The notes below the pieces were generated by a model. The model had not been told where the DNA came from, made no database searches, and saw nothing but the letters and a program-made list of their open reading frames with translations. This document shows positions 3,335 to 64,000 of a stretch of DNA of 64,000 nucleotides, piece after piece. The DNA comes from an uncultured bacterium. GTDB lineage: Bacteria > Omnitrophota > Omnitrophia > Omnitrophales > Aquincolibacteriaceae. Within the stretch, counting starts at the first letter, position 1. Each line of letters opens with the position of its first letter. The translations under genes were made by a program, and so were the position numbers. Where the stretch lies: positions 876-64,875 of the forward strand of contig CAZLTL010000005.1 in the NCBI GenBank assembly GCA_964562525.1, given 5' to 3'.

Positions 3335-3356
3335 GACGCAATTACAGCGGCACTTT

Positions 3357-4472: not shown

Positions 4473-4518
4473 TAGGGAATCCGCGAGTTAAATCATTTTT
4501 AAAGATCTTTTTAAGCTC

Positions 4519-5694
<1,176 letters not shown>

Positions 5695-41767: not shown

Positions 41768-41823
41768 CATTTTATCGCTGAGCTCACTCAACCGGCGTTA
41801 ATGCTTCAAAAGGCTTTTGACGA

Positions 41824-43676: not shown

Positions 43677-44646
43677 CCCTCTTTTCTTTTTATTGCTGCT
43701 TCTCTTGCCGATTTTATTTTATTTTTCCAGATCCAGACAAAAAGTGTGGATGCCGTTTTCCAGTATTTCTGAGCGGGGCTTGCATGGAACGGTGTCACTC
43801 AAAATTTTGCTTTACCGGCTTTTGCCTTTTTTGCGTTTGACCGTACTTGCTTTGGTGATATTTGCGCTTGCGCGGCCGGTTCAAGCTCTGTCAGAAAAAG
43901 ACTTCGAAACCCAGGGAATTGACATTGTGATGTCGCTAGATATTTCAGGCTCCATGCTGGCTGAGGATTTCAAGCCGCAGAACCGCTTGTTTGTTGCCAA
44001 GGAAGAAGCCAAAAACTTCATTAATGCCCGCCAGAATGACCGCATTGGATTGGTTATTTTTGCCAAAAAAGCCTACTCGCAATGCCCCTTAACGTTGGAT
44101 TACAAGATTTTGAATCAGCTGGTGGATGATGTGCAAATTGGGATGATCGAAGACGGCACTGCGATTGGAATGGGGCTGGCCACTGCGGTAAACCGGCTTA
44201 AAACAAGCACTGCCAAGAGCAAGGTCATCATTTTGCTGACCGATGGTGATAATAATGCCGGCAATATTGACCCTGTCACTGCCGCGGAGCTGGCGAAGAC
44301 ATTCGGAATTAAAGTGTATACGATTGGCGTTGGGAAAGGCGGGCTTGTTGATTTTCCTGTCGTGGATCCTTTGTTTGGGAAACGATATGTCCAGGTTGAA
44401 ATGGATGTGGACGAGTTTGTGCTGAAGCGAATCGCGGACATCACCGGAGGAAAGTTTTTCCGCGCTCGTGATGCGGCAGGACTTAAAGAAGTTTACTCAA
44501 AAATCGATCAGCTTGAACGTACAGAGATCAAAGTGCATCTCTATCAAAGCTATCAAGAGCTTTTTAAATATATTCTGATTCCCGCTGTCTTGCTTTTGTT
44601 CATTGAATTGGCTTTATCTAGAACTGTTTTACTTAAAATCCCATGA
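43657..44646 (+). CDS. batA: von Willebrand factor A-domain membrane protein, BatA-like
   Basis: N- and C-terminal TM helices flanking a vWA domain with the MIDAS motif (DIVMSLDISGSM...LTDGDNN). Confidence 0.7.
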   Translation: MGMQFRDPLFFLLLLLLPILFYFSRSRQKVWMPFSSISERGLHGTVSLKILLYRLLPFLRLTVLALVIFALARPVQALSEKDFETQGIDIVMSLDISGSMLAEDFKPQNRLFVAKEEAKNFINARQNDRIGLVIFAKKAYSQCPLTLDYKILNQLVDDVQIGMIEDGTAIGMGLATAVNRLKTSTAKSKVIILLTDGDNNAGNIDPVTAAELAKTFGIKVYTIGVGKGGLVDFPVVDPLFGKRYVQVEMDVDEFVLKRIADITGGKFFRARDAAGLKEVYSKIDQLERTEIKVHLYQSYQELFKYILIPAVLLLFIELALSRTVLLKIP

Positions 44647-44712
44647 CAACACACGATCAACACCAAAATAATAAATGGCGGTTGGGCATAGCCCAGAGCC
44701 GCAAATAATACT

Positions 44713-47731: not shown

Positions 47732-49090
47732 ATGTCACCACAAACATCTCATCCAGAGCCGAGGAATCATGTTGTTGTGGGCATTGTTATTTGTATTCTA
47801 ATATTTTCAGCTGGGCTATTGCCCATCGACTCGGTTCGACCTCTGCAGTTATTGGGTTGGCCCGTCTGGATTTTTTTGGTAACGCGTTTAAGCCTGAAAT
47901 CGGGTTTAACAGCATCCCTTTTGATTAATCTCACGCTTAGTTTATTCGGCTCGTTTTGGATTGAATATTTCGGCTCTGGGTTTCTTATCAAGGCTGTGTT
48001 GTTATCGTTTTGGGTTTTACCGACATTAACTTTGATTTTTCACGGTATTCGAAAAATAACAATGCTTGGAAACGCTTTCGCTTTGGTTTTAGCTTCTGTT
48101 TTTCCCGTGGCATTCATTTCGCAATCACCCCTTTACCAGGGATTTTTTAATTTTCCGCTTGTTGCTGAGCAAATTCTTTTCTTGTTTCATGGTTCGTTAG
48201 GCCTTTTTATTTTAGGAGTCGCTTGGATTGGTTTATGTGCCGGAGCCTTGGAATTGCTCAAGACTAAATCTAAAACAGCTCTGATTATTACTGCCGTTAA
48301 CAGTTTAGTTTTGATACTCGCTTTTGGTTTTGGCGCATTTCGGACAATGGAAGAAACGTCAAATACTTCAATTGATCCAAACACAGTAAAAAAAGTGGCA
48401 TTAGTTCAACACAACGTCCCGTTCTTTTCTGATTCACGCGACTTGCAAGCTGTTTTGGAATCTTATGCTATTAAATCAATAGAGAGCGTAAAACGCGATC
48501 TGATTGTTTTTCCTCTGTATGACTTACCTGAAAACTTGCAGCGCGACCTTATTGATCCGGATAGCGGATTCTTTCGTGATCTTGCCTTGAAAACAAATTC
48601 GGGTATTTTAGTTGCTACTAAGCTGTCAGGATTGGTTGCTTTTGGTAAATTTTCGAATAATTTTGTCATTGCCGCAGCGCTTCGTTCCGGCGCAGGTTCG
48701 CTGGATGGTGTGCATCGCTCTTCTGCGCGTTCGCCGTTTCATGATCCCAGACAAGTTTTAGAGAAATATGATGTGATTAAGTCGAACGAATTTGGAACTT
48801 TTGGTGCTTTGATTTCGTATGAATTAGAAACACCGGATCGCGCCCAAACTGCGAAAAGGCTCGGCGCTAAGTTTCTGGTGGGTTTATCAAACCCCGGCGA
48901 CGCACCCTATTCCCCTTTACCTGCTTATCAGCTTAAAGAAATCCAGAGGCGTGCCATTGAAACCAATCTGCCAATTTTATCGGTAACCCCGAACGGATAT
49001 TCGGCGCACATCGATTCGCGGGGACGGGTTGTTAAGAAATCGCAGCTGGGACAATCCGAAATCTTATTAGCAGACTTGGTCGTAATTTAA
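47732..49090 (+). CDS. lnt: Apolipoprotein N-acyltransferase-like protein (Lnt architecture: polytopic N-terminal membrane domain + C-terminal CN-hydrolase-like domain), with apparent substitutions at catalytic positions
   Basis: ~6 TM helices, then the Lnt-hallmark VALVQHNV (compare VALVQGNI). At positions aligned by eye to the E. coli Lnt triad: IVFPL (Glu to Leu) and ALISYE (Cys to Ser). Confidence 0.55.
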   Translation: MSPQTSHPEPRNHVVVGIVICILIFSAGLLPIDSVRPLQLLGWPVWIFLVTRLSLKSGLTASLLINLTLSLFGSFWIEYFGSGFLIKAVLLSFWVLPTLTLIFHGIRKITMLGNAFALVLASVFPVAFISQSPLYQGFFNFPLVAEQILFLFHGSLGLFILGVAWIGLCAGALELLKTKSKTALIITAVNSLVLILAFGFGAFRTMEETSNTSIDPNTVKKVALVQHNVPFFSDSRDLQAVLESYAIKSIESVKRDLIVFPLYDLPENLQRDLIDPDSGFFRDLALKTNSGILVATKLSGLVAFGKFSNNFVIAAALRSGAGSLDGVHRSSARSPFHDPRQVLEKYDVIKSNEFGTFGALISYELETPDRAQTAKRLGAKFLVGLSNPGDAPYSPLPAYQLKEIQRRAIETNLPILSVTPNGYSAHIDSRGRVVKKSQLGQSEILLADLVVI

Positions 49091-49154: not shown

Positions 49155-52100
49155 TTACGCTGAGGCTTCAACCTTCTTGCGGGATGCAAGCTCAATGAGC
49201 AGTGATTTGAGAGCTTCGTTGTTCCAGTATTTGTTCATGTCGCGAATGCCGTTGCTCAATCGGGTATCCACACCAGGCGCGAATTGCAGATCAAATTGTT
49301 TTGCTCCGAACTCAATCGCTAACTTACCTGTCGAAATCGCTTTTGCTATGAGCTCCTGATCCAGTGTATTTTCACCGTCATAAGCAAACGTCATCAATTC
49401 ATGATCTGCAGGATTATTTGCAGCCAAGGTCTGATTCAACTCTGCCAACTTAGCGAGCATACGGTCATTGGTTGCCAGCTCTCTTGGCATCAAGATTGTG
49501 CTGCTGCTGATACCGATTCGAAGAATCTTCTTCGCGAGCACCTGAGCGTCGATTGCTTCGATGTTCGCAGCTGAAATGACGTCCACGTCGTTGATCTTCA
49601 AATTTCCGGTAGGATCAAGCAACATCACATTGGTTGTGCTGCGACCAATTTTAGATTTAAACGGACTTTGAACTCCGGCAACACCCTTCATGATTTGCTC
49701 AACAGCAAGTCGTGCTTTAGCATCAAGCGAAGCGTTTTTCAACGCTTCAAGGTATTCATTCATCAGCAGTACTTCTGCGGTGAATGAAGCGGCCATCGCA
49801 GATCGCTGCATACCCTTGACTGTTTCAAGATAAGCTTCAATTTCGCGAAGCATATCGATGTTAGAACCATAAAGCCCTGCGAAAGGAAGCAATTCGGAGT
49901 TAGCAGCAATAAGTTCGTCTGCTGTTTTCCCTTCCTGCGCGGCGTGAACCGCTTCGTGACTAACAATCGCAATTGCCATCCGCTCAACCATAACCGCGTA
50001 AGCTTGATCATCGAGCCCAACAAACTTATCAGGATTGAGAACAATCTTGCCTGCTATATCTTCGTTGGGCTCTTTTATGTCTGCATAAAGACCGAGCGCA
50101 TTGTTAGCAAAATAATCTCTCACCTGCTCTGGCGTTGCAAGCTCAATCGGCGGCAATGTCATATTTTTTAAGGAATCTGATTCTGGCGCTAACTGAGAAA
50201 TCTTTTTATCTGCAAGATTTACTATATCCGATAGAACTGAGTCTCTTAATTCAGATCGATTAGCGCTCACGGGTTGTTTTTCTGAATCCACAGCATCTAA
50301 CCCCATATTTACAGGCATTGTTGTTTCTGTAACAAACGCAGAACCCTTATCAGTACCCCAATTTTGAATTAAATCATGCACTCCAAATACCCAGCTGCGC
50401 ATATACATTGCCGCAGCCTTTTGGATATTGTCGGATTTTGTTACCTTAAACAGTTCAGCAGCTTCGCTTTCGGTTAAAATCTTTTCTCCGCGCTGCTTGA
50501 TCTCAGGCTGATTATTTTCCGCGAGTTTTGCATTCACTATAGACTCAGCTAGTTCTTTGTCACCGCGGCTAGCGGCATCAAGCCACTGAAAAAACCAGCG
50601 TGACATGTCAATCTGACCAAAATAATCAGATTGTTCTCCAAAAATAGCGCGATAAAGCTTGAATGCTTCTTGATAGTCGCCTTTTTCAAGCATGGCATCA
50701 GCTTGAGTGAAATTACTTCTATACTTCAAAATTGGGCTGTCACCTGCACTCACAATCTTACGGTAACTTGCCATTTTCTTAAGATAGAGCTCGTCCATCA
50801 TCGCGCCCGCTGCGGTAAGGCCTTCGTAAGCTTGATTTGCTTCACCTTCAGGCAGTGCGCGCAAATAAACTGTGGCAAAGTACTCAGCAAGAAAATCGCG
50901 TGCGATTTGCCCCTGGCTATCGGAACCTTGTTTGTGAATCCAAAGCATCATTTGAGCTTTCATACGCGTTTCATCCGCTGTCTTGGGATCAGCAACGATT
51001 GAAGTTAATTTTTTCTGAAGCGCGGATTCATCTTTAAGTAAAGTCTGAACTCCAAGCTGCTCTGCCAAATACTTCTCAGAAGCCCATTGGTCGAGCAAAT
51101 ATTCCATGGTTTCATGCAGCATAAAGGCACGAATCACACCATCGATTTGAGACTCTGAAGCCCCCATGGAGCGCATCAAATTCAGCTTCTTCAAGAGTTC
51201 TGCGCTGAAAAACATAATTTTTCCAGAAACATGAGCTGCTGCATCAGGATCAGAATCAACCGCTTTTTGAATATCGCGCAATACAAGCGCTGCATTAGTG
51301 ATAAAGGTCTTTGCCATAGGCTGTTCTTCGGCAGAAAAATTATTCCACTGCATTGACTCGAGTGATGCGGTTACTCTTTCTGCGGTTTTTTCGATCCAGG
51401 TTAGATCGACACCTAATCCATAAACGCGACGGAATTCTGAAAGAACATTCGTATGCACCATTTCTTCGGATTGATTAGCTAGGTCAAGCAGAGCTACCGT
51501 TCCTTCCAGATTTTGACGGAGGTCTTGTTCTAAAGCATTCTGTGAGCGCGCACTTAAAACTGCATTTGCAAAGTCATTACGGAAGGTTCCTTCTGCAAAC
51601 ATTGTAGTAATCAATCCGCCAGCATCTAATCCATGAACCTCAGCTAACATCTGAATACTTTCAGGCGTTAACCATTCGTATCGAGCAGCAATGGCCGCAA
51701 AAGCATCTTGAGTAATATTTGCGCGCAGCTCCATGTCTGCAGCAAATACCTGCTTAAGTTCTGCGATCGAAATATTAGTATTAAGCAAGGCTGATAAAGC
51801 TGAGTAATGCTGCGTGTTGATTTCGGAGTCCACCATTCGAAGAGCGTCTTCAACGGTTAAGCCCGCCTGTTTGGCATTCGCCAATACCCATGCCAGACTT
51901 TGTGAAGAACCTAGACCCTGCGTCTCAAAGCTAGCTATGGCTTTGAGATAAACATATTGCTTAAACATCGAGGTTTCAACACCTCCCAAAGCTTGTGCCA
52001 CAAGTGAATCAAAGATTGCACCGTCATTTATTTTTTCACCGGCCTGGCTAAGTAAAATTAACATCAATTGGGCTGATTTTCCGATGACTTCGGCATACGA

Positions 52101-55100
52101 CGCAGGAGCAAGCTGTTGGATGCGCTTAAGTGTTTGTGCAAAAGCTAGTGCCTCAGTAGAGCGTTCCCCATCACCCTGCTTAGTCATTTGCTTGATTAAG
52201 ATCTCATACTGTGAAGATGCAGCTCGATTACGCAAAACTTCCGAAGCTGCGCGCAATGGAGCTCCCCAGGTTTTCTGAGTTGCCCAGCGCGAAAGAAAGT
52301 TTTCGGTGCGGCCTAGAGTCTTACTGAGCGACTCAGCAGCAAGCGAGGTCATCTCATCATCACTTACGCTAAAGACCGCTTTTGTTAAACGCGCGTCAAA
52401 TTCTTGAACCAATTGAATGTAGGTCTCAATTGATCTGATGCTTATCTCGCGCGGCAGCGCTTTTACAAGATTTGCATGATGACGGATAATGAGAGATGCC
52501 GCTTTCGCGTCTATCAATAAATTCAGCTTACTTAATTCAGCGGCAGCATCCTCACCACTCATGTTTAAAATATTCGGAACTATTGCAGCAAGAGAATGAT
52601 CGCTTTTAAGACCTATCAGCGGAAGAAGCGTATTATTCCACCATCCCCGAATATTGTCTGTCATTCCGGGCATCCAGCGGCTTTGCGTAAGGGCGAGCAC
52701 TGCACCGAACATTCCAGCAGCAATCAAGAAAGCCGGTGTCCAAACAGCTCCGACCACAAGTCCAACAGAAGAAATGACTAATGCACGCTTGAGGTCGTTT
52801 GAATCATTGCCTTGCGTACCATACGCAAATGCTTTTAAGCGGTAAGCCCAGACAGCCGGGGTCAAATTCGTCTTCAAAAATCCTCGTTCGGTGCTGAGCG
52901 CTTGATACATTTTATCCTCTGAAATTTTAAGGCTTTCTGAGCGACGGATCATCCCTGATTCGAGATTTGAACGACGTGTACCTTGGGTAAACACGTTCTG
53001 ATAAACAGCAGCCTGCGCGCCCGTATTTGCAAAACCCATCGTGCGAATAGCACGCCAAGCCGCAAATTCAAAATTACGACTAACCAAAGTGCTCGCCAAC
53101 ATTTCACCAAGCAACGCATTCTGAGAATTACCCAACTCTACTTGATAATCAGCTAATGCATGACCGATGAATTCAAGCCGTTTAGCAAGATCCATCGAAT
53201 TTCGGCTTTCAAAAATATTCAGAGTGTTGAGATATTGAACCGCAGAGACCATGGCGTCATTTTGGCTTGATCCGCGATCAAAAGTGTCTCCGTTTAACGA
53301 TGCAATAAGCGCGACGGCCTCAATCACAGCACCTGCCGAAGACGGTGTGGTCACATTTGCGCCAAAAACTCCGCGAAGAAACTGAATCGAACGGTAGGCT
53401 CGGCCATTGACGGTACCCACTCCGATGTCACCTGTTTGCTTCCAATAATCAATTACCCGGTCAGCAAGTTCTGCCGAAACACCGCTTTCGTACTTGAGCT
53501 CGTTAATCGCGCGTTCAGGATTGTTCACGCGTTGCGCAACGTGCTTTTCGTATTTTTGTGCTTGTTCATTGCCCGCTATTCGGCTTTCGCGTGACTTAAG
53601 AATATAATCACTAAAGAGCATGACGGTTTTTACGAAGTCACGCGGGCTACCCTCTTGCTGGCGTGCAATGGAATAGCGGCCATCAGCATTGTCGGCTTCA
53701 ATCCGGGCAATATCAAATTCTGATGAAACCCGCTCACCCGTCATAGCACGTTCAATCGACATTAAATCGTGGAAATTGAAAACATGCTGTATCAATTCAC
53801 GAGATAGCCCTGTTTGAAGCAGTTTCTCCATCAAGGAGCCTCGCTCAACGCGGCTGGTTTCTGTCTTATTTCCAAAAACTTGCTGAATAGTCATTTCAAC
53901 CTGTCGGCGCACAAATTCACGGCCATCAACACCATCGCGTGAAAGCTCAGTCCACTCATTGCCGATTTTACCTTCTTCAAGCTCCGAGATGACTTCGCGG
54001 ATTTTTTTGAGCATTGGTTCATCTGCATTAAATGTAACAAGTAACTTTCGCATACCCTTCATGACCATAAAATCTTGCAGATACGTGCGTACAACTGCTT
54101 TTGCGCCCTCGGATTGATGCAAAGCTTCATTGAACTCCGCATTCAGGGTCAATACGGTTTCACGGCCAAATTCGCGTACGAGCTCTGCATTGAGGATTTC
54201 AGAAAAACGGGCGGGATCAATGCGCCCAGGCTCTTTCAGGCTGGCGGCTAATTCGAGAATTTTGCCGTACATCTGAAGTCGTGATTCGTAAAGAGCAATG
54301 CGGTTTTGCGACAAATTAACTTGCTCGTTAGAAGCATTCTTCATAACTTCAGATTCGATTGCCCGCACGGCTTCGAGTTCATTTGCAGAACGGGTTTGCA
54401 TGCGGTGCAAGAAACTGACAAAAGAGTCGTATGAGACTTCTCCGATAGCGGTTTTCAAGTTTCCTGCTAATGCTTCGGCATCTGCAAAAAGTCTGATTTG
54501 ACCCTGATTGGAGCGGTCGCGACCGATGACTTGCGCTAAGAAATGTGAGGCATAGTTCTGAACATCAAATGCAAAAACATGGGTCGCGGAAAGTGAGCGT
54601 GCTTCGTCAGGTAATACCTTCTTGAGGATATCAATCAGAGCTGTCTCACCTTCTTGTCCTTTGTATTCAGGGTTTTTCTGATTTTCTTTCATTTGCTCAA
54701 CCGCAGAATTGATTTCCCGATTTTCGCTCACGCTCATTTCACGAGGACGGGCTGCATTCAACCCGGTTCCGCCCACTTCGGTTGCAACGAGGATGCGGAA
54801 CCCTGAAACCATCTCACGTGCAAAACCAGGGATATTAGCTTCATTGGTATTTTGATCGACATTCAATATTTCATATTTGGCATCAAGTAATCCCTCTGCT
54901 TTCATTTTTGCAACTGACTCATCAATCCATTTGCGCATTTCAGGGTTACGCAGCACCATCACAAAGTTATCGTTGAAGACAACATTCGAGTTGCCTTTTT
55001 TCTCCGAAGCCTTAGCAACCGCATCGCGCATACTGGCTTCAAAAGAATCTTGGAACGCTACTTTTGAGACATTACCGTCCAATAATACTGTGCTAAGACG

Positions 55101-58100
55101 ATCGACGGATTTCGATGCGTAATAAGAAAGATCCGGAGCACTGCGGCCAAGCTCAAGTAACGCGTTTCCGGTGAATAGACGAATGTATTCAGGCATCGTC
55201 GCCGTAAGCGCCACAGCTCCGCGGATAAAATTTGACTGCACCGGCGTACCCATCTTAGTGCGTAACCGACCCAGTGAACCAGAATCAAACCAGCTTTCAA
55301 GCTTTGTCCAGTCTTGAATTTTGACTGAGCTGCTTTCAACGGACACGCCTTCTGTTTTTTGCGCGCCAAGTTCAGGTGTCACATCTGCTTTTTCAAAACC
55401 GTACTCACTAACTGTTTTGCCAAGTTTGCCGCCCAGGTCAGAGAAATACTTGTAAAGAGAAGCGATTTGCAATGCCACATCACTTGATTGCTGGTCTTTG
55501 TGAATGCGGATATTATCCGCGGGTTTTAATACCAGCCGCGCAAGCCCTTGTGCATTTTCTCCCACCATCACACCCATGCGGGTTTCCTTACCATAAAGTG
55601 CGAGAAAAATAGAAGAGAACTCACGAGCGAGCTGGATGCCGTATGGCGCTCCGATTTTCGTTAATTCGGCCTGAAGACCCGCAGTAAAAATAACTTGTCC
55701 GCCCAATTCATCGACATAAAAAGCTTTGCGGCCCGCACCCTCAGCGCCAAAATACTCAGAACCCAATGTGTCAAATTCACTACGCTTGATTTCTTCATAG
55801 CCCTTTTTCTTAAGCGTATCAATGAATTCAAAGTATTTTTCAATTGTTTCGCGCCCCACAAACTTAGGACGATTACCATCGGCAATGATGGCTTTCACAC
55901 GGCTGAACGCAGCAAATTGGGCTTCATCGAGCACAACTCGGTCGAATTTATCGTTGAGATAATGAATTAAATCTTTGCCTGCCGGACTGTCAATGTTGTT
56001 AAAAAGATGCGTCTTAGAAAGAATATCTGTGACCAAAACACCATTTTCTTTGCGGGCAAGTTCAGCCTGCAATCCGGCAAAATCACGATTACCATCCGCA
56101 ATATATTTATCCGCAAGAACCAATTCCATGCCGAGTGCTTTAGCAACTTGCGAGTTCGTTAAACCCGAACCAAACTCAATTTCGGTCGGCATTTTATTAG
56201 AAGACATTCGGTTTTCTAGAACAAGCGCGACGCGCCCTTTGCGCTCGTTAAAGTTACGGTTTGACATATAAAATGCCGAACCCAAAAGCTGCCCGCGGGT
56301 TTTACCGATGCCGGTTCCGGCCGAAACGTCAAAACCAAGGTCGATTCCTACTGCAATCATAAAATGCGCAGCACCGCGGCCCATCATATCCGCGAACGGA
56401 CGATCTGTTATATCGGTTAAACCTTTATCGCTCAACATTGCAGTTTCTCGATTAACACGCCCGTCTTTAGTCATCGTGGTTTCAAAAATAACTGTTTCAA
56501 AAATATAATTCTCGACTCGGCTTGCAAATTTCCCTGCAATTTCTTCGCGACCATTTGAGTTTTTATCAAATGTTTTGCGGATTCCATCGACAAGCTGTCT
56601 TGTAAGACCTGATTCCATCACATTTCTTATTTGCTGACGTACAGCTTGAATCGCTTCCTGATTTCCTGAACGTGCTGCATCAAACAGACTGGTGTTCAAG
56701 TTCTGCGCTGAAAGCTCTTGGTGTAAACGATCGCGTGCCGCAAGCACAAGATCAGCCGTTGATGCACGAGCAAGCAATGCCGTAATCTCAGACTCGCTTG
56801 TGGCTTTAATTAGCGCATCAAGCACTTCCGTTTTTCCGTCAACACGAGTTGCTTCAATCAAGGCACCGCGTAGTAACTGTTGAATTCGGCTGCCGGCCGT
56901 TTCTTTGATGCTCAACGCCTCACCGAGACTTGTACCCGTGGCAAACTGCACCAAATCAGCCACTTGCTCAAGCCCTGATCGATTGACTACAAGCTCTACT
57001 CGGCCTTTTAAATTTGATCCTTCAATCTCTAATTTGCGAATCTGATCGTGAACTGTTTGAATTTGTTCTGCGGAGCCTTTTTTCTGATAAAGTCCCTCAA
57101 GCTCTTGTCTCAATCCGTCAAGCTTCGTGTTTAGCGCTTTGTATTTCGGTTCGATCACGCGAACCTCGGCAATAGCTTCAACCCAAGCTTTCATCGCGGC
57201 TTTTGTTTCAAATCGTTCAATCATTTCGTGGTTTGACATTTTGAGCATCTCACGAATGGCTTCCGTGCGGATTTCAACATCGGTTTTGGATGCGGACGCA
57301 TCGATGTTTTTGAGTTCTTCGAGAGTTACAGTCTTCCATTCTGCGGCCAGGTATTCAAAAAGTGCCATTCCCGCATTTTGCGGTCCGGTGAGCTGGCGCA
57401 GCATTGCCAAAGTCTCGTAGCTGATATGAATCGTTTTGCCGTTAGCATCAAGAATGACGATACCTTCAAATGATTTATCCGCATTCTTGGAGGCGACACG
57501 GAAAACTTGAGCAGCCTTGGAGGGCGCTCGTGACTGAATCTCAGCAATGGCTTCTGCCGCTTTTTCCGCACGGATTGTCGGTGCGGCTTCATTCAAAGTA
57601 ACAGTCAAAACAGCGCGTGCGGCATCTTGTGCGCTGATTAACTCCGCTGGAGGTGCTAAATTTGTGAGCTGCGCCACAAATGCTTCGGCTAATGCCGGTA
57701 GTAAGTCGCTTAAACGTGTATTCAAAACCAAATTATCCTTAAACGCCGCGTCACTTAATCCAGTTTCTTTTAAAAACTCTTTTAATGTCTTACCGTTAAC
57801 CGCGTCAAACCCTTCATGTGCGAGCTTTACGGCTTCATTGAGAACGTTGGCAACTGTTTCAGTTAACGCTGCAGAATTTTCGGTATCGATAAAAAGGTCT
57901 GATACAAGTGTTCGTAAATATCCGCGATTGGACTGAGCGGTAAAAGCTTGAAAAAATCCTGATACCTCTTTAGCTGCAGTTGATCCAGAGAGCATTCCTT
58001 CGATAAAAAGATGCGGCTCAGATAAGATAACGCCACTGCTTAATCTTCCGCTCACATCCATATCTTTCAAAAGTTCGCGTGCTGCATACTTGTCCGTGAC

Positions 58101-61100
58101 TTTAACGCCTTGAACATCCGCTTCTGCGATTCTGCTAAATGAAACATTTTCAGTTTTCGCATCAGTTACGCGTGCTTCGGGCTCAGCGAATGAAATTGCG
58201 ATACCAAATTCAGCGAGTGTTCTACGCGAGGAAGCATGGTTCGCAATAACGTAGAAGTTAACCGTCGTCAAATCAATCGGCTTAGAGTCTTTAGGGAGAT
58301 TAACTTGCTCAAGACTGATGTCTTTTCTTTCAAACAAAATTTGATCTACCAAATCCATGCGCCGCTGTTGGTAAGCCTCTGCCAAAACGCGTCCGCCATC
58401 TGTTTGCGCTTTAACTTCCGTGATCCGCTCTATGGCGGTTTTGAAATCTGAATTAAAGCGCCCTTGAGCCGCAGTGGACATTAATGGATGCCGTGCTTGG
58501 GGCACTAAGAAAATCGCATACTCACCGACTCCCTGCATAAATTTACCGTAATTACCTTGAAAGTCGTTCGCTGCGGCAAACGCAGCAAAGCTGACGGGCA
58601 TCATGAAATAATGTGCCAGCATCATCGGAATTGACTCAAGCGTAGCCGGCCCGCTTACGCCGCCAATCGGAGTATAAGTTCCGGTCAAAAGAGCGGTAAC
58701 ACCATTAATCGATGAAAGCACCGCATTAAACATCAACATATTGTCAGCAAATGCGAGGAATTTACCGGCACCGCCGGGTTGAAGCATATGATTTTTATAA
58801 AAATTATTATTGAAAGTATTAGCCAAACCACGGATTAATCCTTGAGTTTCAGATAATGTGCCCAGCGCTCCCCGAGAGTACGTAATTCCGGCAACATGCA
58901 TAACTTGTCCCAAAATTACATCGTGAGCAAGACGCTCTGTACCCCATGCTTCGAGGCTTAGAAACTCGTGGTCGAACCAAGCCCAAGCGAGGCGGACATT
59001 GCCCCAGTTTTCCCATCCATAAGTTTTGCCGTCAGGACCAATATTGGCTCCAAAATCAGCGAAAAGATGTTTAATGCCAAGCAAAGACTCCGCAACAGGA
59101 AAGGCATGGAAAAATATCACGCTACTGTATGCTTGATCCCATAGCGCGCTCACAAGCGCTTTATTACCGTGAATCGATTGCTCCAAAGCTCCAGAAATGG
59201 GCATATAGCCTGATTTAACCGCTAAATCACGGCTGACCAACGGTAAAAACTGAGACTTTCCATCACGCAATATAAATTTGCCGTTCACAATAGATGCACG
59301 CGATACGGATGCGGATAATCCCACAAGAAAACGGAATGCAAATCCAGCGCTAAAAAAGTAGAGCCCCCAGCTTTGAACCTGCTTATTGCCTGTAATTATG
59401 CCGACAGTTAAAGTACCTGCGCCAATCCATGAAGCAACGACGCCTGTACCATAGGCAAAACGTGTTGCGGCATTTAATCCAGAAATGCCGCGCAAACTTC
59501 CTAAGAAAAGCGGCCCCATCAACATGAATCCGCCGGTGACGGCAAGGGCTGTGCCCACCACTTTTAGAAAGGCAATATCGTAGTGGTGTCCCACTTGCTG
59601 CAAGGCGGCACCGAGACCGATTACAGAGGCACTGACTGTATTCCAGCTTTTTAAGGCAGCTAAGGCGGCTGTTCCGAGCCCCTGAGTGGTGCTCCAACCT
59701 TTGGCAAGATCACGCAAGGTGCTGACACTCTTTATTGCATTGGATCCGAACGTTTGCCACCCAGCCTTTGTGAACGCGGCTGCCCCAACACGAGCGCTAC
59801 TTACTGCGAATGATTTGATAAAAACACCCAAGCGTGCCCCCACAGGTAAATACGACAGGGTGCTACCTACATCCAGAGTTGCATTGAGCCATGTTCCTTG
59901 TATGCCGTTGGATTGTAAAATGGCATTGCCAACTGTGCTCGCGAGACCGATACCTCCGAGCGTGTCTACCGTAGTCCAAAAAGTTGATGTGCCGCCAACA
60001 CCGCCCAAAGCACCAAGCCCATATGCAAGACCAATAGCGCCGCCAACCATAGCAACTCCGCCAAATACTTTCAGATAATTGCCGACAGAATTATCTCCGG
60101 CATAGCTGCCTGCCATGTACATACCTGCTCCCACACCTAGCCAAATGGTACCGCCGACAGCAAAAGCACTCGCAGTTGATACAGAACCCACCGCCACTGT
60201 TGTTGATCCGGCTAATACCAATGCACCAGTGCCGTAAGTCACAACAACCATACCCACCACAGCCAAGGCTGCTGCACCACCGCGCAGCCATTTTTCACCC
60301 GTGCTCATATCGCTCCAAACAGACTGCGCGGAAAGCCAAAAACTATTGTCGTAAGATTCACGCATACGGAGTACGCGGCCTGAAGCATCGATATCTTCAA
60401 CATGGGAATGCTGCGAGCCCTCTGCGTAATTGAGATACTTGATAGAGGTCGCCTGATTGTCAGAGTTAAAGGTGCGAGCAAGCTCAAAGCGGTCGTCGTC
60501 GGTGTCTTCATATTTAAATGAAGCCAGTTGCCCCGCCGCATTGAATGTCAGACTACCTTTGAATCCAATCAAATTGACGGATTCGCCAGCATTTCCCGGT
60601 TGAGGAACAAATATCTGTGGATCGTTATCAATGATTCCACCGTCAATAAACTGGTACTCAGCAGCTTGCTTGAAATTATTGTTTTTATAGACCGCAATCA
60701 GTTTATTGTCGCCGCCGTTGTTCTCAGAAAGTGAGAATGTGATGTGATGCGTATTATCATCAACGCGAGTGAACTCATATCCGACACCAGAACCTTCGAG
60801 AGTAATCGGGTTATTTTTCCCCATCAATATCCATTCATGGCCAAATTCAGTCACAATCACTGAGCTGCCAGAAATAAACTGATTACTATTGGTCATATTC
60901 ACCCACGCAACGTTACCATTTACGTCGCGCAAGTAGGATCGTTCGTTTTTTTCTTTATAGGTTTGGCCGGTAGGCATCATAGCGCCGCCAACACTGCCAT
61001 AGCTCACCTGGTATCCCGTTGCTTGCCATTCACCCGTTTTAATTTGCACAAAAGTGCTGCCGTTTACCAGCGCATATGTATATTTCGTTCTGTTTTCACC

Positions 61101-64000
61101 CACTGAAACGGATTGTCGAATGACTTTTCCCTGCTCGTTAAAAACATACGTGGAACTATCACTGAAACTGAATTGAAACAGATTTTTATCAGACGCGCTG
61201 TAACCTTCTAAGCTCATCCCAGACAGATTCTTTGAAATGATATTATTCAAGTCGCTAAGATCTGCCGCAAATGAACCCGAGAAATTAATCAAAGGAAGTG
61301 CTCGAGCGTCTACAATATGTCCGCTTTCACCCTTGACGTCCCATGCCGCGAATGAAACATCTCCGCTTTGAATATCTTTAAACCGAAGAATTGTTCCGCT
61401 TACATTGGTGATTTCATGCGTATCGGTTTTGCTGTATATCAAAGACTGAGCGATTCCCGCTGCACGCGCCGCTTGCGCAGATTCAGAACCGGCTGGCAAT
61501 TTCTCAAAATCAAAATCTATGGCGCCGCGGAATGCGCCGATTAAACTGTTTTTGCTGTCGACAAATACTCTTAAAGCTAAGTCAGTGCCAATTTCGTCAC
61601 CCGAAATAACTTTTGAGGATGTTGCGTGAGTCGAAATCAATTCAGCAACCGCGTTATTCACTGATATTTCCGAGGAAGAAGTGTTCCTTGGATCATTGGC
61701 AGAATAAACAGTAACCGAAGTTTGAATATTGGCTTTATCTTGTTTAAGCTCGCTCTCATTGGCCCAGCGCATATCCGAGCCGAATTGGCGGTCAAAGCCG
61801 TCAACGAGTTCTCCGTCGTTGTTATAGACACCAAGAAAGTCACGACCAATATTTTCACCCGGAAGAATCTTGAACCCTGCGCGAGTTTCAGCATATAAGA
61901 GTCCTTTAATATTGTCCGCGCTGCTGAAAACTGCAATAGTTGCACCCTGCGCCAAAGGATCAGTGCCTGCAAAGAGATCCGTATCCACAAATACGCGGAA
62001 TGAGCTGTTATTTTTATCTGAGCCCACCAACAGCAGGTTTGCCTCAGCTAAACCATAGCGGCCTTCATACTGTTGGCCCGATTGTGATATAAATTTTGAG
62101 CCTTCTTTACGCTCAAGGTTTTGTTGCTGCCGCTGCAATTCAGCTGGAGTTGCCGCTTGCAGCATATTGCCGGAGCGATCGAGCGCTCCAAAAAGTGATT
62201 TACCATCTTCGCTGAGAATCTGATACCAGTGTCCAGAACGATCCATATTGAGCAAAGCACGGTTACCATCGATCTCGATTGCCATTTGCTGTAATGATGC
62301 AAATTCACTCAAATTGCCGAAACGTGTCGCCAAAATCTCACTCGCTTCATTGAGGTAGATTGCGATTCCTGCATTATCTCCGCGGTCACTAATAATTTCA
62401 TATGCCGGAGAAATAGATTTCCAAGTTTTTCCGCTGCCATCACTCAAGCTCTTGTATTCACCGCTCTGTGGCAAGTTGTATCCGGAAGTTCCGTAGGCTT
62501 TCCGCAAAACCTCAGTTTGAGTTTTGCGGTCAAACAGGCCTATAGTTCCGCTTGTGTCGCGTATCAAATAACTTTCTTCACCTAAATGAGGTTGATATGT
62601 TTTTCCGGCAATTTGAAAAAATACTGTCTGGATTTGATCGTTGATCGTACCTAAGCCAGCGGGTTGCAGTACTTCTAATGTCACGCCTTGAAGCATACCA
62701 ATACGATCACCGGATTCGTTTAAATAGTATGCAACACTAACTTCGCGACCATTTTGGTCGAATGCAATACCCTTGACGAATTTGTTGTAGGCAAACTGCT
62801 TGGTAGGATCATTCGATTGAAGTGGATTTAACTTACCGCCAGCTTCCATCTTAGCGGGGCCATTCATGAACTGATAACCTACAAAAGCGCCATTGGCATC
62901 CGTGATCTTGAAGCTGTTGTTGCCCATGCCGGAGTAGCTTTGGTTATTTGCATAGGCAAAAAGTGTCATGGCTTCAAAACTGCCTACGCCAGTTACCATT
63001 CTATCAATCGCTTGATCTAAGCTCAGTGTTTTGTCGCCATTCCACTGGCTGACCAAAGTGATTCTATTCTCATGCGCAAAGAAACTAAAATGTTCTCCTT
63101 TGTTATTTGTCGCGCCAAAGACGCGCTCAACGTTAAGACCGCCGATTGATGTGTTCTTTGCAAATTCACCAGCAACTTTGTCAGTATCAACAGTCTTACC
63201 AGAATCAAAATGACCATTATGCCCAAGCACGCCTACTAATTCACCCGTGCGAAGATCATTAACCTGAAACGCTTGCGCGATATTCATTAATCCGCTCATT
63301 TCGTATTTAAAATTACCAACTTGATAACTCATGTACGTTAAGCCTTCAAATGAAGTCAGAGTTATATTTTGAGAGGCAGGACCATTCACTAGCAAATTAG
63401 CAAATTCAGGCAATCCCATGACTGCATTGATTTCATTCAGTGTTGATTGATTTCCGCGCAAAGTAATTGATTGACCGCGTTCATTCACCAAAAGCTGATA
63501 CATTTGTCCGTTGTTGGCGTCAGCGGTTAAAACTTGTTTCGCTGTGAATGTTGCGCTCTTCAAACCATCGCGCGTATTAAGCGACCAGGTATATGGCGAA
63601 TCAAGTGTGCGCGCATCGTAGAATTTGCCGCTGACACCGATTATTCCGTCAAGACTATGAGTGTAAGGGTTAAACACAGAGTAAACGCCATAATCCCCGT
63701 TTTGGAAAGCTTCAGGCAGGTGGCGATATTCGAGACCATCCTGCGTGTAAAATAATGCAAGTGTCTTATCCTTGCCGACCCCTGTCATCATCAAACTCGC
63801 AATATCCCCATTCTCAAATCCGATTTCAAACGAGGCTTTTTTCTGCGCGCTAAAAAGGGTTACAGACGAATCAATATTTAAATTGAGCAACCCTGATTTA
63901 GTATGAACTTGAGGTTGATCTTTGGTCCAAGTTCTCAAAGACAAGTATTCGCCCTGGTTAATGAACCCGATCACGGCTTGGGTTTTAAGATCGCGAGCGA
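49155..64000 (-). CDS. Giant multidomain membrane protein, >4,939 aa, 5' end beyond the window. Beta-rich N-terminal region, Gly/Ala-rich polytopic TM segment, central SF2/SNF2-like P-loop ATPase, second TM hairpin, long alpha-helical C-terminus with HExxH
   Basis: A single uninterrupted 14.8-kb minus-strand ORF (stop TAA at 49155-49157) that stays open to the window edge. Walker A DVSAGTGIGKT (~56296-56335), Walker B VVLDEAQ (55917-55937), motif V ILVATEVGGTGLN (54761-54805), motif VI AQVIGRDRS (54511-54537). Gly-zipper TM cluster ~59277-60297. HEAVH at 49924-49938. No other frame has comparable ORFs. Confidence 0.8.
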   Translation of the reverse strand, partial: ARDLKTQAVIGFINQGEYLSLRTWTKDQPQVHTKSGLLNLNIDSSVTLFSAQKKASFEIGFENGDIASLMMTGVGKDKTLALFYTQDGLEYRHLPEAFQNGDYGVYSVFNPYTHSLDGIIGVSGKFYDARTLDSPYTWSLNTRDGLKSATFTAKQVLTADANNGQMYQLLVNERGQSITLRGNQSTLNEINAVMGLPEFANLLVNGPASQNITLTSFEGLTYMSYQVGNFKYEMSGLMNIAQAFQVNDLRTGELVGVLGHNGHFDSGKTVDTDKVAGEFAKNTSIGGLNVERVFGATNNKGEHFSFFAHENRITLVSQWNGDKTLSLDQAIDRMVTGVGSFEAMTLFAYANNQSYSGMGNNSFKITDANGAFVGYQFMNGPAKMEAGGKLNPLQSNDPTKQFAYNKFVKGIAFDQNGREVSVAYYLNESGDRIGMLQGVTLEVLQPAGLGTINDQIQTVFFQIAGKTYQPHLGEESYLIRDTSGTIGLFDRKTQTEVLRKAYGTSGYNLPQSGEYKSLSDGSGKTWKSISPAYEIISDRGDNAGIAIYLNEASEILATRFGNLSEFASLQQMAIEIDGNRALLNMDRSGHWYQILSEDGKSLFGALDRSGNMLQAATPAELQRQQQNLERKEGSKFISQSGQQYEGRYGLAEANLLLVGSDKNNSSFRVFVDTDLFAGTDPLAQGATIAVFSSADNIKGLLYAETRAGFKILPGENIGRDFLGVYNNDGELVDGFDRQFGSDMRWANESELKQDKANIQTSVTVYSANDPRNTSSSEISVNNAVAELISTHATSSKVISGDEIGTDLALRVFVDSKNSLIGAFRGAIDFDFEKLPAGSESAQAARAAGIAQSLIYSKTDTHEITNVSGTILRFKDIQSGDVSFAAWDVKGESGHIVDARALPLINFSGSFAADLSDLNNIISKNLSGMSLEGYSASDKNLFQFSFSDSSTYVFNEQGKVIRQSVSVGENRTKYTYALVNGSTFVQIKTGEWQATGYQVSYGSVGGAMMPTGQTYKEKNERSYLRDVNGNVAWVNMTNSNQFISGSSVIVTEFGHEWILMGKNNPITLEGSGVGYEFTRVDDNTHHITFSLSENNGGDNKLIAVYKNNNFKQAAEYQFIDGGIIDNDPQIFVPQPGNAGESVNLIGFKGSLTFNAAGQLASFKYEDTDDDRFELARTFNSDNQATSIKYLNYAEGSQHSHVEDIDASGRVLRMRESYDNSFWLSAQSVWSDMSTGEKWLRGGAAALAVVGMVVVTYGTGALVLAGSTTVAVGSVSTASAFAVGGTIWLGVGAGMYMAGSYAGDNSVGNYLKVFGGVAMVGGAIGLAYGLGALGGVGGTSTFWTTVDTLGGIGLASTVGNAILQSNGIQGTWLNATLDVGSTLSYLPVGARLGVFIKSFAVSSARVGAAAFTKAGWQTFGSNAIKSVSTLRDLAKGWSTTQGLGTAALAALKSWNTVSASVIGLGAALQQVGHHYDIAFLKVVGTALAVTGGFMLMGPLFLGSLRGISGLNAATRFAYGTGVVASWIGAGTLTVGIITGNKQVQSWGLYFFSAGFAFRFLVGLSASVSRASIVNGKFILRDGKSQFLPLVSRDLAVKSGYMPISGALEQSIHGNKALVSALWDQAYSSVIFFHAFPVAESLLGIKHLFADFGANIGPDGKTYGWENWGNVRLAWAWFDHEFLSLEAWGTERLAHDVILGQVMHVAGITYSRGALGTLSETQGLIRGLANTFNNNFYKNHMLQPGGAGKFLAFADNMLMFNAVLSSINGVTALLTGTYTPIGGVSGPATLESIPMMLAHYFMMPVSFAAFAAANDFQGNYGKFMQGVGEYAIFLVPQARHPLMSTAAQGRFNSDFKTAIERITEVKAQTDGGRVLAEAYQQRRMDLVDQILFERKDISLEQVNLPKDSKPIDLTTVNFYVIANHASSRRTLAEFGIAISFAEPEARVTDAKTENVSFSRIAEADVQGVKVTDKYAARELLKDMDVSGRLSSGVILSEPHLFIEGMLSGSTAAKEVSGFFQAFTAQSNRGYLRTLVSDLFIDTENSAALTETVANVLNEAVKLAHEGFDAVNGKTLKEFLKETGLSDAAFKDNLVLNTRLSDLLPALAEAFVAQLTNLAPPAELISAQDAARAVLTVTLNEAAPTIRAEKAAEAIAEIQSRAPSKAAQVFRVASKNADKSFEGIVILDANGKTIHISYETLAMLRQLTGPQNAGMALFEYLAAEWKTVTLEELKNIDASASKTDVEIRTEAIREMLKMSNHEMIERFETKAAMKAWVEAIAEVRVIEPKYKALNTKLDGLRQELEGLYQKKGSAEQIQTVHDQIRKLEIEGSNLKGRVELVVNRSGLEQVADLVQFATGTSLGEALSIKETAGSRIQQLLRGALIEATRVDGKTEVLDALIKATSESEITALLARASTADLVLAARDRLHQELSAQNLNTSLFDAARSGNQEAIQAVRQQIRNVMESGLTRQLVDGIRKTFDKNSNGREEIAGKFASRVENYIFETVIFETTMTKDGRVNRETAMLSDKGLTDITDRPFADMMGRGAAHFMIAVGIDLGFDVSAGTGIGKTRGQLLGSAFYMSNRNFNERKGRVALVLENRMSSNKMPTEIEFGSGLTNSQVAKALGMELVLADKYIADGNRDFAGLQAELARKENGVLVTDILSKTHLFNNIDSPAGKDLIHYLNDKFDRVVLDEAQFAAFSRVKAIIADGNRPKFVGRETIEKYFEFIDTLKKKGYEEIKRSEFDTLGSEYFGAEGAGRKAFYVDELGGQVIFTAGLQAELTKIGAPYGIQLAREFSSIFLALYGKETRMGVMVGENAQGLARLVLKPADNIRIHKDQQSSDVALQIASLYKYFSDLGGKLGKTVSEYGFEKADVTPELGAQKTEGVSVESSSVKIQDWTKLESWFDSGSLGRLRTKMGTPVQSNFIRGAVALTATMPEYIRLFTGNALLELGRSAPDLSYYASKSVDRLSTVLLDGNVSKVAFQDSFEASMRDAVAKASEKKGNSNVVFNDNFVMVLRNPEMRKWIDESVAKMKAEGLLDAKYEILNVDQNTNEANIPGFAREMVSGFRILVATEVGGTGLNAARPREMSVSENREINSAVEQMKENQKNPEYKGQEGETALIDILKKVLPDEARSLSATHVFAFDVQNYASHFLAQVIGRDRSNQGQIRLFADAEALAGNLKTAIGEVSYDSFVSFLHRMQTRSANELEAVRAIESEVMKNASNEQVNLSQNRIALYESRLQMYGKILELAASLKEPGRIDPARFSEILNAELVREFGRETVLTLNAEFNEALHQSEGAKAVVRTYLQDFMVMKGMRKLLVTFNADEPMLKKIREVISELEEGKIGNEWTELSRDGVDGREFVRRQVEMTIQQVFGNKTETSRVERGSLMEKLLQTGLSRELIQHVFNFHDLMSIERAMTGERVSSEFDIARIEADNADGRYSIARQQEGSPRDFVKTVMLFSDYILKSRESRIAGNEQAQKYEKHVAQRVNNPERAINELKYESGVSAELADRVIDYWKQTGDIGVGTVNGRAYRSIQFLRGVFGANVTTPSSAGAVIEAVALIASLNGDTFDRGSSQNDAMVSAVQYLNTLNIFESRNSMDLAKRLEFIGHALADYQVELGNSQNALLGEMLASTLVSRNFEFAAWRAIRTMGFANTGAQAAVYQNVFTQGTRRSNLESGMIRRSESLKISEDKMYQALSTERGFLKTNLTPAVWAYRLKAFAYGTQGNDSNDLKRALVISSVGLVVGAVWTPAFLIAAGMFGAVLALTQSRWMPGMTDNIRGWWNNTLLPLIGLKSDHSLAAIVPNILNMSGEDAAAELSKLNLLIDAKAASLIIRHHANLVKALPREISIRSIETYIQLVQEFDARLTKAVFSVSDDEMTSLAAESLSKTLGRTENFLSRWATQKTWGAPLRAASEVLRNRAASSQYEILIKQMTKQGDGERSTEALAFAQTLKRIQQLAPASYAEVIGKSAQLMLILLSQAGEKINDGAIFDSLVAQALGGVETSMFKQYVYLKAIASFETQGLGSSQSLAWVLANAKQAGLTVEDALRMVDSEINTQHYSALSALLNTNISIAELKQVFAADMELRANITQDAFAAIAARYEWLTPESIQMLAEVHGLDAGGLITTMFAEGTFRNDFANAVLSARSQNALEQDLRQNLEGTVALLDLANQSEEMVHTNVLSEFRRVYGLGVDLTWIEKTAERVTASLESMQWNNFSAEEQPMAKTFITNAALVLRDIQKAVDSDPDAAAHVSGKIMFFSAELLKKLNLMRSMGASESQIDGVIRAFMLHETMEYLLDQWASEKYLAEQLGVQTLLKDESALQKKLTSIVADPKTADETRMKAQMMLWIHKQGSDSQGQIARDFLAEYFATVYLRALPEGEANQAYEGLTAAGAMMDELYLKKMASYRKIVSAGDSPILKYRSNFTQADAMLEKGDYQEAFKLYRAIFGEQSDYFGQIDMSRWFFQWLDAASRGDKELAESIVNAKLAENNQPEIKQRGEKILTESEAAELFKVTKSDNIQKAAAMYMRSWVFGVHDLIQNWGTDKGSAFVTETTMPVNMGLDAVDSEKQPVSANRSELRDSVLSDIVNLADKKISQLAPESDSLKNMTLPPIELATPEQVRDYFANNALGLYADIKEPNEDIAGKIVLNPDKFVGLDDQAYAVMVERMAIAIVSHEAVHAAQEGKTADELIAANSELLPFAGLYGSNIDMLREIEAYLETVKGMQRSAMAASFTAEVLLMNEYLEALKNASLDAKARLAVEQIMKGVAGVQSPFKSKIGRSTTNVMLLDPTGNLKINDVDVISAANIEAIDAQVLAKKILRIGISSSTILMPRELATNDRMLAKLAELNQTLAANNPADHELMTFAYDGENTLDQELIAKAISTGKLAIEFGAKQFDLQFAPGVDTRLSNGIRDMNKYWNNEALKSLLIELASRKKVEASA

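Follow-up and report, generated by a model that had tools for sequence, protein, structure and literature searches.

A giant gene at the edge of the window

The stretch of DNA analysed here (the window) comprises 64,000 nucleotides of contig CAZLTL010000005.1, positions 876 to 64,875 of the forward strand, from an uncultured bacterium of the phylum Omnitrophota (assembly GCA_964562525.1). Its last part is occupied by a single giant open reading frame (ORF) on the minus strand. It occupies minus-strand frame 2 and runs without interruption from base 63998 to its stop codon at 49155-49157, which makes 4,947 sense codons, and its first in-frame start is a GTG at 63974, giving 4,939 amino acids (aa). 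Both the ORF running past the window edge and the length counted from this start agree with an earlier note on this DNA, made from the sequence without database searches. Since there is no upstream stop codon in this frame inside the 64-kb window, the giant gene is 5´-incomplete here.

The length of the frame at 46% GC excludes a chance origin. GC content at codon positions 1, 2 and 3 is 0.55, 0.41 and 0.42 in the giant ORF, compared with 0.57, 0.38 and 0.46 in ten neighbouring housekeeping genes; relative synonymous codon usage (RSCU) of the two correlates with r = 0.78, and codon-position GC is even over all ten 500-codon blocks of the ORF. Evidently, the giant ORF is a native coding sequence. 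It is also free of repeats: self-BLASTP of the protein returned no second high-scoring segment pair, TRF found no tandem arrays in the DNA over the ORF, and no repeat-type Pfam family appeared on tiles of the protein. An RTX or adhesin repeat protein, the ordinary alternative named in the earlier note, is ruled out by this repeat-free sequence.

Cysteine is completely missing from the window protein (0 of 4,947 residues, about 46 expected). Its share is 0-0.3% in relatives P0001-P0009 and L005-L018, described below, as against 0.93% in the neighbouring housekeeping genes. The avoidance extends to the presumably cytoplasmic ATPase of the family and constitutes an unexplained constraint.

Regions of the giant protein

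The regions and motifs of the protein are listed in Table 1. Compared with the rest of the protein, aa 1-1235 contain more N/S/T/Y and turn formers and fewer helix formers, so the Asn/Gly/Ser/Thr/Tyr-rich, cysteine-free N-terminal region of the earlier note is recognizable; its beta-rich character, also proposed there, is suggested by composition. No relative of aa 1-925 was detectable, family members included; P0004 and P0007 match weakly over aa 926-1235.

The Gly/Ala-rich membrane segment proposed in the same note is equally recognizable. Residues 1251-1500 consist of 32% Gly+Ala and only 6% charged residues, K+R outnumber D+E by 22 to 7 in aa 1236-1600, and uncharged hydrophobic stretches lie at aa 1240-1301, 1311-1344, 1480-1502 and 1514-1538. 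At least six hydrophobic uncharged segments occur between aa 1240 and 1811, forming a transmembrane (TM) cluster N-terminal to the ATPase core, and TM clusters occupy the equivalent position in P0002, P0004, P0007, L008 and L014. The second TM hairpin of the earlier note corresponds to the 35-residue uncharged hydrophobic stretch behind the ATPase, which brings the hydrophobic segments of the window protein to at least seven overall. In the other relatives that reach that far, a TM-like hairpin lies about 580-1,050 aa past motif VI of the ATPase. The C-terminal part of the window protein is rich in helix formers.

Table 1. Regions and motifs of the giant protein; residues are counted over the 4,947 codons present in the window
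Feature	Residues	Window position	Strand	Remarks
Giant ORF		49155..63998	minus	4,947 codons in window; stop at 49155-49157; 5´ end beyond window edge
N-terminal region	1-1235	60294..63998	minus	N/S/T/Y/G-rich, few helix formers; presumed extracytoplasmic (composition)
Gly/Ala-rich polytopic membrane segment	1236-1600	59199..60293	minus	predicted from composition and hydropathy
Hydrophobic/amphipathic segments (1753-1787, 1789-1811)	1601-1860	58419..59198	minus	conserved with P0002, L008
Charged linker, membrane region to ATPase	1861-2519	56442..58418	minus	rich in helix formers; conserved with P0002
SF2 ATPase core	2520-3185	54444..56441	minus	two RecA-like domains, ~200-aa insertion after Walker B
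Walker A / motif I, DVSAGTGIGKT	2557-2567	56298..56330	minus	P-loop lysine K2566
Walker B / motif II, VLDEAQ	2689-2694	55917..55934	minus	contains invariants of alignment A1
Motif VI, (AQVI)GRDRS	3159-3163	54510..54524	minus	arginine-finger region
Post-ATPase region	3186-3738	52785..54443	minus	rich in helix formers; conserved in all relatives
Hydrophobic hairpin	3739-3773	52680..52784	minus	35 uncharged residues, central WTP, K/R on both sides
HExxE module	4185-4560	50319..51446	minus	LHETME at 4294, GSDSQGQIARDFLAEY at 4358
Zincin-like HExxH...E and C-terminal domain	4561-4947	49158..50318	minus	alignment A3; end -EASA
JAMM/MPN-like motif (relatives)	P0003 aa 4972, P0004 aa 5033, L010 aa 6775, L014 aa 5569, L017 aa 4631, L018 aa 6151			

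Relatives of the giant protein

To find relatives, aa 2400-3500 were run exhaustively with phmmer against 1.84 billion representative proteins. No more than 11 matched, each with E < 1e-10: eight proteins of 2.8-5.8 thousand amino acids (kaa) and three short fragments; ordinary helicases and SecA were not among them. Scanning 185,579 species genomes for a pattern derived from the family alignment yielded 14 loci, and every one of these with an organism named in its record belongs to Candidatus Omnitrophota or Omnitrophica, one being syntenic with the window. The comparison with Omnitrophota drawn in the earlier note is thus borne out. A profile scan of 241 million metagenome records added one 1.5-kb fragment. 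Of the source contig itself, the collections contained a 2.9-kb Logan contig from run SRR13355622. A word-index protein search gave one fragment for the ATPase core even with a profile and nothing for the N-terminus, and single-sequence scans (ATPase core against genome contigs, N-terminal 400 aa against metagenome contigs) gave no matches. Nor did tblastn of the ATPase core match any of 72,556 plasmids or 50,697 phage records.

ORFs spanning the family matches range from 2.8 to at least 7.3 kaa, most being cut by contig or locus ends. The longest partial relative has at least 7,307 aa, and family size runs from 4.4 to more than 7.3 kaa. Three ORFs are apparently complete: P0003 (5,849 aa), P0009 (4,402 aa, with an N-terminal signal peptide) and L017 (about 5,050 aa, with a signal-peptide-like start); P0008 carries a signal peptide as well. 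About 20 relatives from independent assemblies share one module order, namely TM cluster (in most members), ATPase, helical region, TM-like hairpin, HExxE module, HExxH...E module and C-terminal domain, while the N-terminal part is hypervariable across the family. We are highly confident in describing the family by this variable N-terminus, the Gly/Ala membrane segment, a chassis reaching from the SF2 ATPase to the C-terminus, and strong avoidance of cysteine.

The syntenic locus is that of P0002, in the metagenome-assembled genome GCA_043821445.1, where DnaK, MoxR, DUF58, BatA, BatB and YqeY are followed by the convergent giant gene as in the window; the neighbouring genes of the two loci are 55-82% identical. 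In L016 and L012, too, the giant gene has YqeY/BatB or Lnt at its side. Synteny, together with the restriction of named relatives to Omnitrophota, shows that the window is from an Omnitrophota chromosome and that the giant gene has been vertically inherited. The gene belongs, as far as sequence comparison can tell, to a rare, lineage-restricted family of predicted membrane proteins.

It could be objected that so long a frame is an artefact, created by misassembly or by frameshift errors fusing adjacent genes. The window does come from a metagenome-type assembly without read data, and the closest relative, L005, has a stop directly after its HExxE motif. However, the same continuous frame and module order recur in independent contigs from NCBI, ENA, JGI and Logan, codon-position GC is uniform in the ten blocks mentioned above, and there are no repeats able to mislead an assembler. 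The independently assembled colinear relatives rule out an assembly artefact, and we consider this explanation vanishingly improbable. The giant ORF is one genuine chromosomal gene of an Omnitrophota bacterium and encodes a polypeptide of at least 4,947 aa, which supports the single, mosaic, membrane-anchored gene product of the earlier note.

L005 (contig CAZSVD010000374.1) is 37% identical to the window protein over 1,900 aa. Its ORF ends at nt 5731 with the stop right after an LHETKE motif, where the contig has only 28 nt left; the cause could be truncation of the allele, splitting of the gene or a sequencing error.

The ATPase core and its class

Ten sequences of the family were aligned over the ATPase core (alignment A1). 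Invariant columns are concentrated in motif I (D38, S40, A41, T43, G44, G46, K47), motif II (D172, E173, Q175) and motif VI (A636, Q637, G640, R641, D642, R643, S644). The invariant motifs read DVSAxTGxGK (I), DExQ (II), QSSD, TKxGTPxQ, (S/T)AT and AQxxGRDRS (VI). The superfamily 2 (SF2) consensus for motif I, [AG]xxxxGK[ST], is matched by SAGTGIGKT at aa 2559-2567, invariant in 10/10 members, and that for motif VI, QxxGRxxR, by AQVIGRDRS at aa 3155-3163, again invariant in A1. Two tandem RecA-like alpha/beta domains are present in the core. AlphaFold modelled the core with a mean confidence (pLDDT) of 35 from the single sequence and of 63 (predicted TM-score, pTM, 0.54) with A1 as input. A Foldseek search with the model gave MDA5 as top match and Mycobacterium tuberculosis SecA with probability 1.00. 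The assignment to SF2, already proposed in the earlier note, is solid; assignment to a subfamily is not. In particular, the label "SNF2/DEAD-like" of that note cannot be restricted to SNF2: of the full-length profile matches, SecA alone exceeded the null, and that match is not robust.

Domain libraries recognize little of this. On ten overlapping 600-aa tiles of the window protein, the Pfam search suggested in the earlier note gave nothing better than E 0.01, all below curated cut-offs, and detected no known family; toxin, glycoside-hydrolase and dockerin domains were likewise absent from the tiles. The ATPase region had no match in NCBIfam, the window protein had no hits among PHROGs, and profiles of the ATPase, HExxE and C-terminal modules found nothing credible among PDB sequences. 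PADLOC reported only a 42-residue PD-DExK match (E 8e-4) in a family-variable segment, which is not credible, and a defence system was rejected on this ground. A polyvalent protein of a mobile element was also rejected, given the syntenic chromosomal locus and the lack of plasmid or phage relatives.

The segment hit by PADLOC, aa ~3091-3151 (window 53700-54730, minus strand), lies between motifs V and VI and is variable across the family. Its weak matches, the 42-residue PD_DExK one and Pfam DUF6602 (E 0.01), are probably due to chance. SecA likewise has a variable insertion between motifs V and VI.

The C-terminal modules

Two conserved modules follow the hairpin. The alignment of the HExxE module (A2) has 22 invariant columns, among them H111, E112, E115, G174, D176, Q180, R183, D184, A187 and E188, and neither PDB nor Pfam contains a match to it. 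The C-terminal alignment (A3, 10 sequences) is only about 20% identical, yet H64, E65, H68 and E102 are invariant in it. These correspond to H4681, E4682, H4685 and E4719 of the window protein, i.e. to HEAVH at aa 4681 and a Glu 34 residues downstream of HExxH. The HExxH motif noticed earlier is therefore conserved and not a chance occurrence. Pfam SprT-like (PF10263) is reached by one of the ten members with E 7e-5, and the window protein matches no peptidase model. To judge from its invariant residues, the HExxH...E module is consistent with a zincin. The idea that HExxE and HExxH represent two related zincin domains is unsupported, as hhalign between them reveals no relationship.

Six relatives possess, downstream of the HExxE module, a JAMM/MPN-like motif HFHPxxxPxPSSxTD that is absent from the window protein (positions in Table 1). 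Where a relative has both, this motif lies upstream of HExxH.

The protein terminates in a domain of about 200 aa, whose last residues are -(V/A/R/K)(S/A)A across the family. Complete members end in -VAVAA, -VEVSA, -KVKSAA, -QARSA and -TAKSA, and the window protein in -KVEASA (49158-49200, minus strand). This conserved small-residue C-terminus could be a recognition or degradation signal.

A SecA-like motor in the envelope?

The possibility that the motor is related to SecA was taken up from West-Roberts et al. and from inspection of the motifs. A SecA profile was built from 10 SecA/SecA2 motor sequences (E. coli and PLSDB records) and a control profile from 9 RecG/Mfd sequences. Aligned to the SecA profile by hhalign, A1 gave a probability of 67.7%, E 4.9e-5 and a score of 49.1, the match covering nucleotide-binding domain 1 (NBD1) into the start of the preprotein cross-linking domain (PPXD). 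Forty column-shuffled SecA profiles gave a mean of 18.0 (sd 3.0, maximum 26.9), the reversed profile 20.5 and the RecG/Mfd profile 27.3. At a low mact setting, the alignment is colinear over SecA 64-595 and pairs GTGIGKT with TGEGKT, DEAQ with IDEAR, FYVDELGGQV with FSVDEKSRQV (in the PPXD), KMGTP with MTGTA, ATEVGGTG with ATNMAGRG (motif V) and GRDRSNQG with GRSGRQGD (motif VI). The ~200-aa insertion, located after motif II, occupies the position of the PPXD. Single-sequence E. coli SecA, RecG and PriA were uninformative in hhalign. We treat the SecA-like motor as a leading hypothesis, not as a finding; in our estimation the arguments for and against it are about balanced.

Combined with the anatomy of the family, the published proposal that SecA-like domains of larger giants serve export makes a membrane-bound polypeptide motor with zincin processing the most economical reading. 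The beta-prone N-terminal part, unique to the window protein, would lie beyond the cytoplasmic membrane, where it would serve at the cell surface or in host contact; its position beyond a net-positive TM cluster and the signal peptides of some relatives make exposure likely. Anchoring would be the task of the membrane segment, which may also provide a conduit. The ATPase should reside in the cytoplasm, because an ATP-driven motor must face it. The hairpin would bring the chain back to the cytoplasm, leaving the protease-like modules cytoplasmic or membrane-proximal; with K/R on both sides of aa 3739-3773, the C-terminal modules probably share the compartment of the ATPase. The motor itself, a DEAD-type ATPase with an insertion after motif II, would most likely be SecA-like and push polypeptide across the membrane, the cargo being either the exported part of the protein itself or partner proteins, and the zincin-like module or modules would process the giant protein or its cargo. 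As a whole, this picture of an envelope-anchored protein for ATP-driven translocation and processing, SecA-like mechanism included, seems to us just as apt to prove right as wrong.

A number of results weigh against it. SecA_DEAD (PF07517), SecA_PP_bind (PF01043) and the NCBIfam SecA models gave no hit with E <= 1 on the window tiles or on 10 members, and profiles of PDB sequences miss every family member. After re-alignment with 14 sequences, the SecA score fell to 42.6 over 32 columns, restricted to the Walker A region, and RecG/Mfd reached 42.2 over 166 columns. When the motor was split into domains, only NBD1 was significant and it matched both families (SecA 39.3, RecG 35.0). The insertion alone scored 15.8 against the PPXD (null mean 11.9, maximum 17.8), and NBD2 alone 18.6 against SecA and 29.3 against RecG/Mfd. 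The post-ATPase region compared by hhalign with the scaffold and wing of SecA (590-835) gave a score of 13.6 and a probability of 0.1%. Number and topology of the TM segments are read from hydropathy only, and the true N-terminus with any signal peptide lies outside the window.

The same alignments sustain the main competing explanation, a membrane-tethered nucleic-acid translocase or helicase. Working at the envelope, the protein would move or process DNA or RNA, for instance taken up from a host cell or delivered to one, or in defence, and the zincin would act on DNA-bound proteins. This explanation is kept alive by the generic SF2 fold matches, with MDA5 at the top, by NBD2 and the 14-sequence alignment, which fit RecG/Mfd as well as or better than SecA, and by a hint from the C-terminal module, whose sole Pfam match is SprT-like, a family of DNA-protein crosslink proteases. 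However, the only full-length profile match above the null is SecA, colinear through the insertion; the Pfam tiles and PADLOC reveal no recognizable nucleic-acid-binding, nuclease or methylase domain; and relatives are absent from the plasmid and phage records searched. We regard a nucleic-acid motor as rather unlikely.

Composition and termini suggest yet another function. Proteins that are exported unfolded typically avoid cysteine, as this family does almost completely, and the giant protein might accordingly be mainly a secreted or surface effector or adhesin of polymorphic-toxin type, exported by a separate system, with the C-terminus as signal, the zincin as toxic or processing activity and the ATPase in an accessory or remodelling role. 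The conserved -(V/A/R/K)(S/A)A terminus, the hypervariable N-terminal region and the signal peptides of P0008, P0009 and L017 would fit, as would the adhesion or prey-degradation roles proposed for Omnitrophota giant proteins in the literature (Seymour et al. 2023, PMC10066038; West-Roberts et al. 2023). Yet the conserved hydrophobic segments on both sides of the ATPase point to stable membrane insertion, RTX, adhesin or other repeats are absent, no toxin, glycoside-hydrolase or dockerin domain appears on the Pfam tiles, and an ATP-dependent motor would be without an energy source outside the cell. This explanation is, in our view, very improbable.

Returning to the envelope-anchored polypeptide motor, a bolder version of it can be conceived, in which a SecA-derived motor fused to its own Gly/Ala conduit and processing metalloproteases would make a self-contained export machine in a single polypeptide. 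Independently of SecYEG, it would thread and then display or release its own hypervariable N-terminal surface domain or partner effectors, and it would represent the minimal "chassis" out of which the Omnitrophota giants of 30-150 kaa developed. We think this version distinctly unlikely, only slightly less so than the effector just discussed.

Gene neighbourhood

Credible genes between positions 35 and 49090 number about 46 and are all on the plus strand; minus-strand ORFs in this interval overlap them, and acpP accounts for the gap at 16.1-16.4 kb. The convergent position of the giant gene behind a co-directional series, which the earlier note had put at 48 genes, is thereby confirmed. The series includes PriA, GAPDH, PGK/TPI, RecG, FabF, ACP, SMC, AlaS, HisD, TrpE and a two-component system, as well as DnaK, MoxR, DUF58, BatA/BatB, YqeY and a Lnt-like gene. 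The 64-bp convergent gap contained no promoter or terminator consensus, and neither Rfam nor a tRNA scan yielded any match in the window.

Just upstream of the giant gene lies a complete Bat/MoxR operon of "aerotolerance" type (40769-47031, plus strand), composed of a MoxR AAA+ gene, DUF58, an unannotated ORF, BatA with a VWA domain and BatB with VWA-TPR. It co-occurs with the giant gene in at least two genomes. The Lnt-like gene (47732-49090, plus strand; TM region and CN_hydrolase domain) is situated between YqeY and the giant gene. It is missing from the otherwise syntenic P0002 locus (L003); in L012, the giant gene has a related gene next to it.

Comparison with known giant proteins

Giant, TM-rich and domain-poor ORFs, often with SecA_DEAD after TM anchors, have been described from Omnitrophota in three reports (Seymour et al. 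2023, PMC10066038; West-Roberts et al. 2023, bioRxiv 10.1101/2023.11.21.568195; Nielsen & Lui 2026, bioRxiv 10.64898/2026.06.07.730766). West-Roberts et al. describe these proteins as rich in TM helices; behind their TM anchors lie divergent SecA DEAD-helicase domains, which are proposed to help export the giant protein itself or accessory proteins. The scaffold and wing domains are lacking there, too. The "undescribed type of machine" of the earlier note was therefore too strong a term, as TM-anchored giants with SecA-type domains had already been reported there.

The window protein resembles the published giants in its phylum, in a very long single ORF that is rich in TM helices and has few annotated domains, if any, in a divergent SF2/SecA-type ATPase (with the reservations on SecA given above) that follows the TM anchors and lies towards the C-terminal part, and in poor sequence conservation outside the core. 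It differs in length. The window protein has at least 4.9 kaa, its full length extending beyond the window, and the family 4.4 to more than 7.3 kaa, whereas the catalogue of West-Roberts et al. lists genes of >90 kb (>30 kaa), such as "Archaeovorin" and "Dockerin-type", and the cut-off of Nielsen & Lui is >=10 kaa. In contrast to published giants, Pfam SecA_DEAD and SecA_PP_bind go undetected in all members of the window family. Neither the Archaeovorin set (glycosyltransferase, glycoside hydrolase, methyltransferase, NUDIX, peptidase) nor the dockerin or TSP3 domains of the Dockerin type appear on the Pfam tiles of the window protein, which also has no repeats. Its family is further set apart from the published descriptions by the conserved HExxE / (JAMM) / HExxH / C-terminal set and by marked avoidance of cysteine; a term search of the available text of West-Roberts et al. 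found neither zincin nor cysteine. What is new here is a family invisible to Pfam and NCBIfam, shorter than the published giants as far as its sequences reach, and with C-terminal metalloprotease-like modules that go unmentioned for them in the available text. If read as an envelope-anchored polypeptide motor, the window protein would be a compact relative of the published Omnitrophota giants with TM anchors followed by SecA-like domains.

With the SecA motor proper (NBD1-PPXD-NBD2), the window motor shares a DEAD-type SF2 ATPase, Walker A and B, motif VI and an insertion at the PPXD position. It differs from SecA in being missed by SecA models, in an insertion and NBD2 that by themselves are not significantly SecA-like, and in the lack of scaffold and wing. 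Moreover, it forms part of a ~5-kaa protein with TM segments of its own, whereas SecA is soluble, has about 900 aa and docks on SecYEG. The C-terminal module resembles SprT-like or gluzincin-type zincins (PF10263) in its family-invariant HExxH with a Glu about 34 residues further on; unlike these, it ends a giant membrane protein and matches no peptidase model.

Two further kinds of giant protein invite comparison. Iyer et al. reportedly described, in 2017, "polyvalent" giant proteins of conjugative elements and phages that are mosaics of SF2 helicase and zincin peptidase. The window protein is similarly a very large mosaic with SF2 ATPase and HExxH peptidase-like modules, but its gene occupies a syntenic chromosomal locus, it has polytopic TM regions, and neither plasmid or phage relatives nor PHROG hits were found. 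The other kind occurs outside Omnitrophota, on the Legionella geestiana plasmid NZ_CP041715.1 (L029, 13.8 kb), most of which is taken up by one 2,947-aa "hypothetical protein", WP_135842960.1. Its SecA motor is unmistakable (hhalign 99.8% to the SecA profile). It shares with the window protein, if the motor of the latter is accepted as SecA-type, the burying of such a motor in a giant protein; in contrast to it, the window motor is not clearly SecA, and WP_135842960.1 is plasmid-borne, stems from another phylum and shows no detectable relation to the window protein (score 16.8).

Significance

Current domain libraries miss a whole family of SF2 ATPases, and the family-wide avoidance of cysteine is worth following up. 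Omnitrophota are tiny, host-dependent bacteria. Their giants are assumed to mediate host-cell attachment or attack, and a size of 30-150 kaa puts these proteins almost out of experimental reach. The family described here keeps the arrangement of membrane anchor and SF2/SecA-like motor in about 5 kaa. Owing to this compact size and to the sharply conserved C-terminal modules, it would offer defined, expressible pieces with which protein translocation by such motors could be tested; candidates are the motor (aa ~2480-3200) with mutants at K2566 and the zincin-like module with mutants at H4681, E4682 and H4685.

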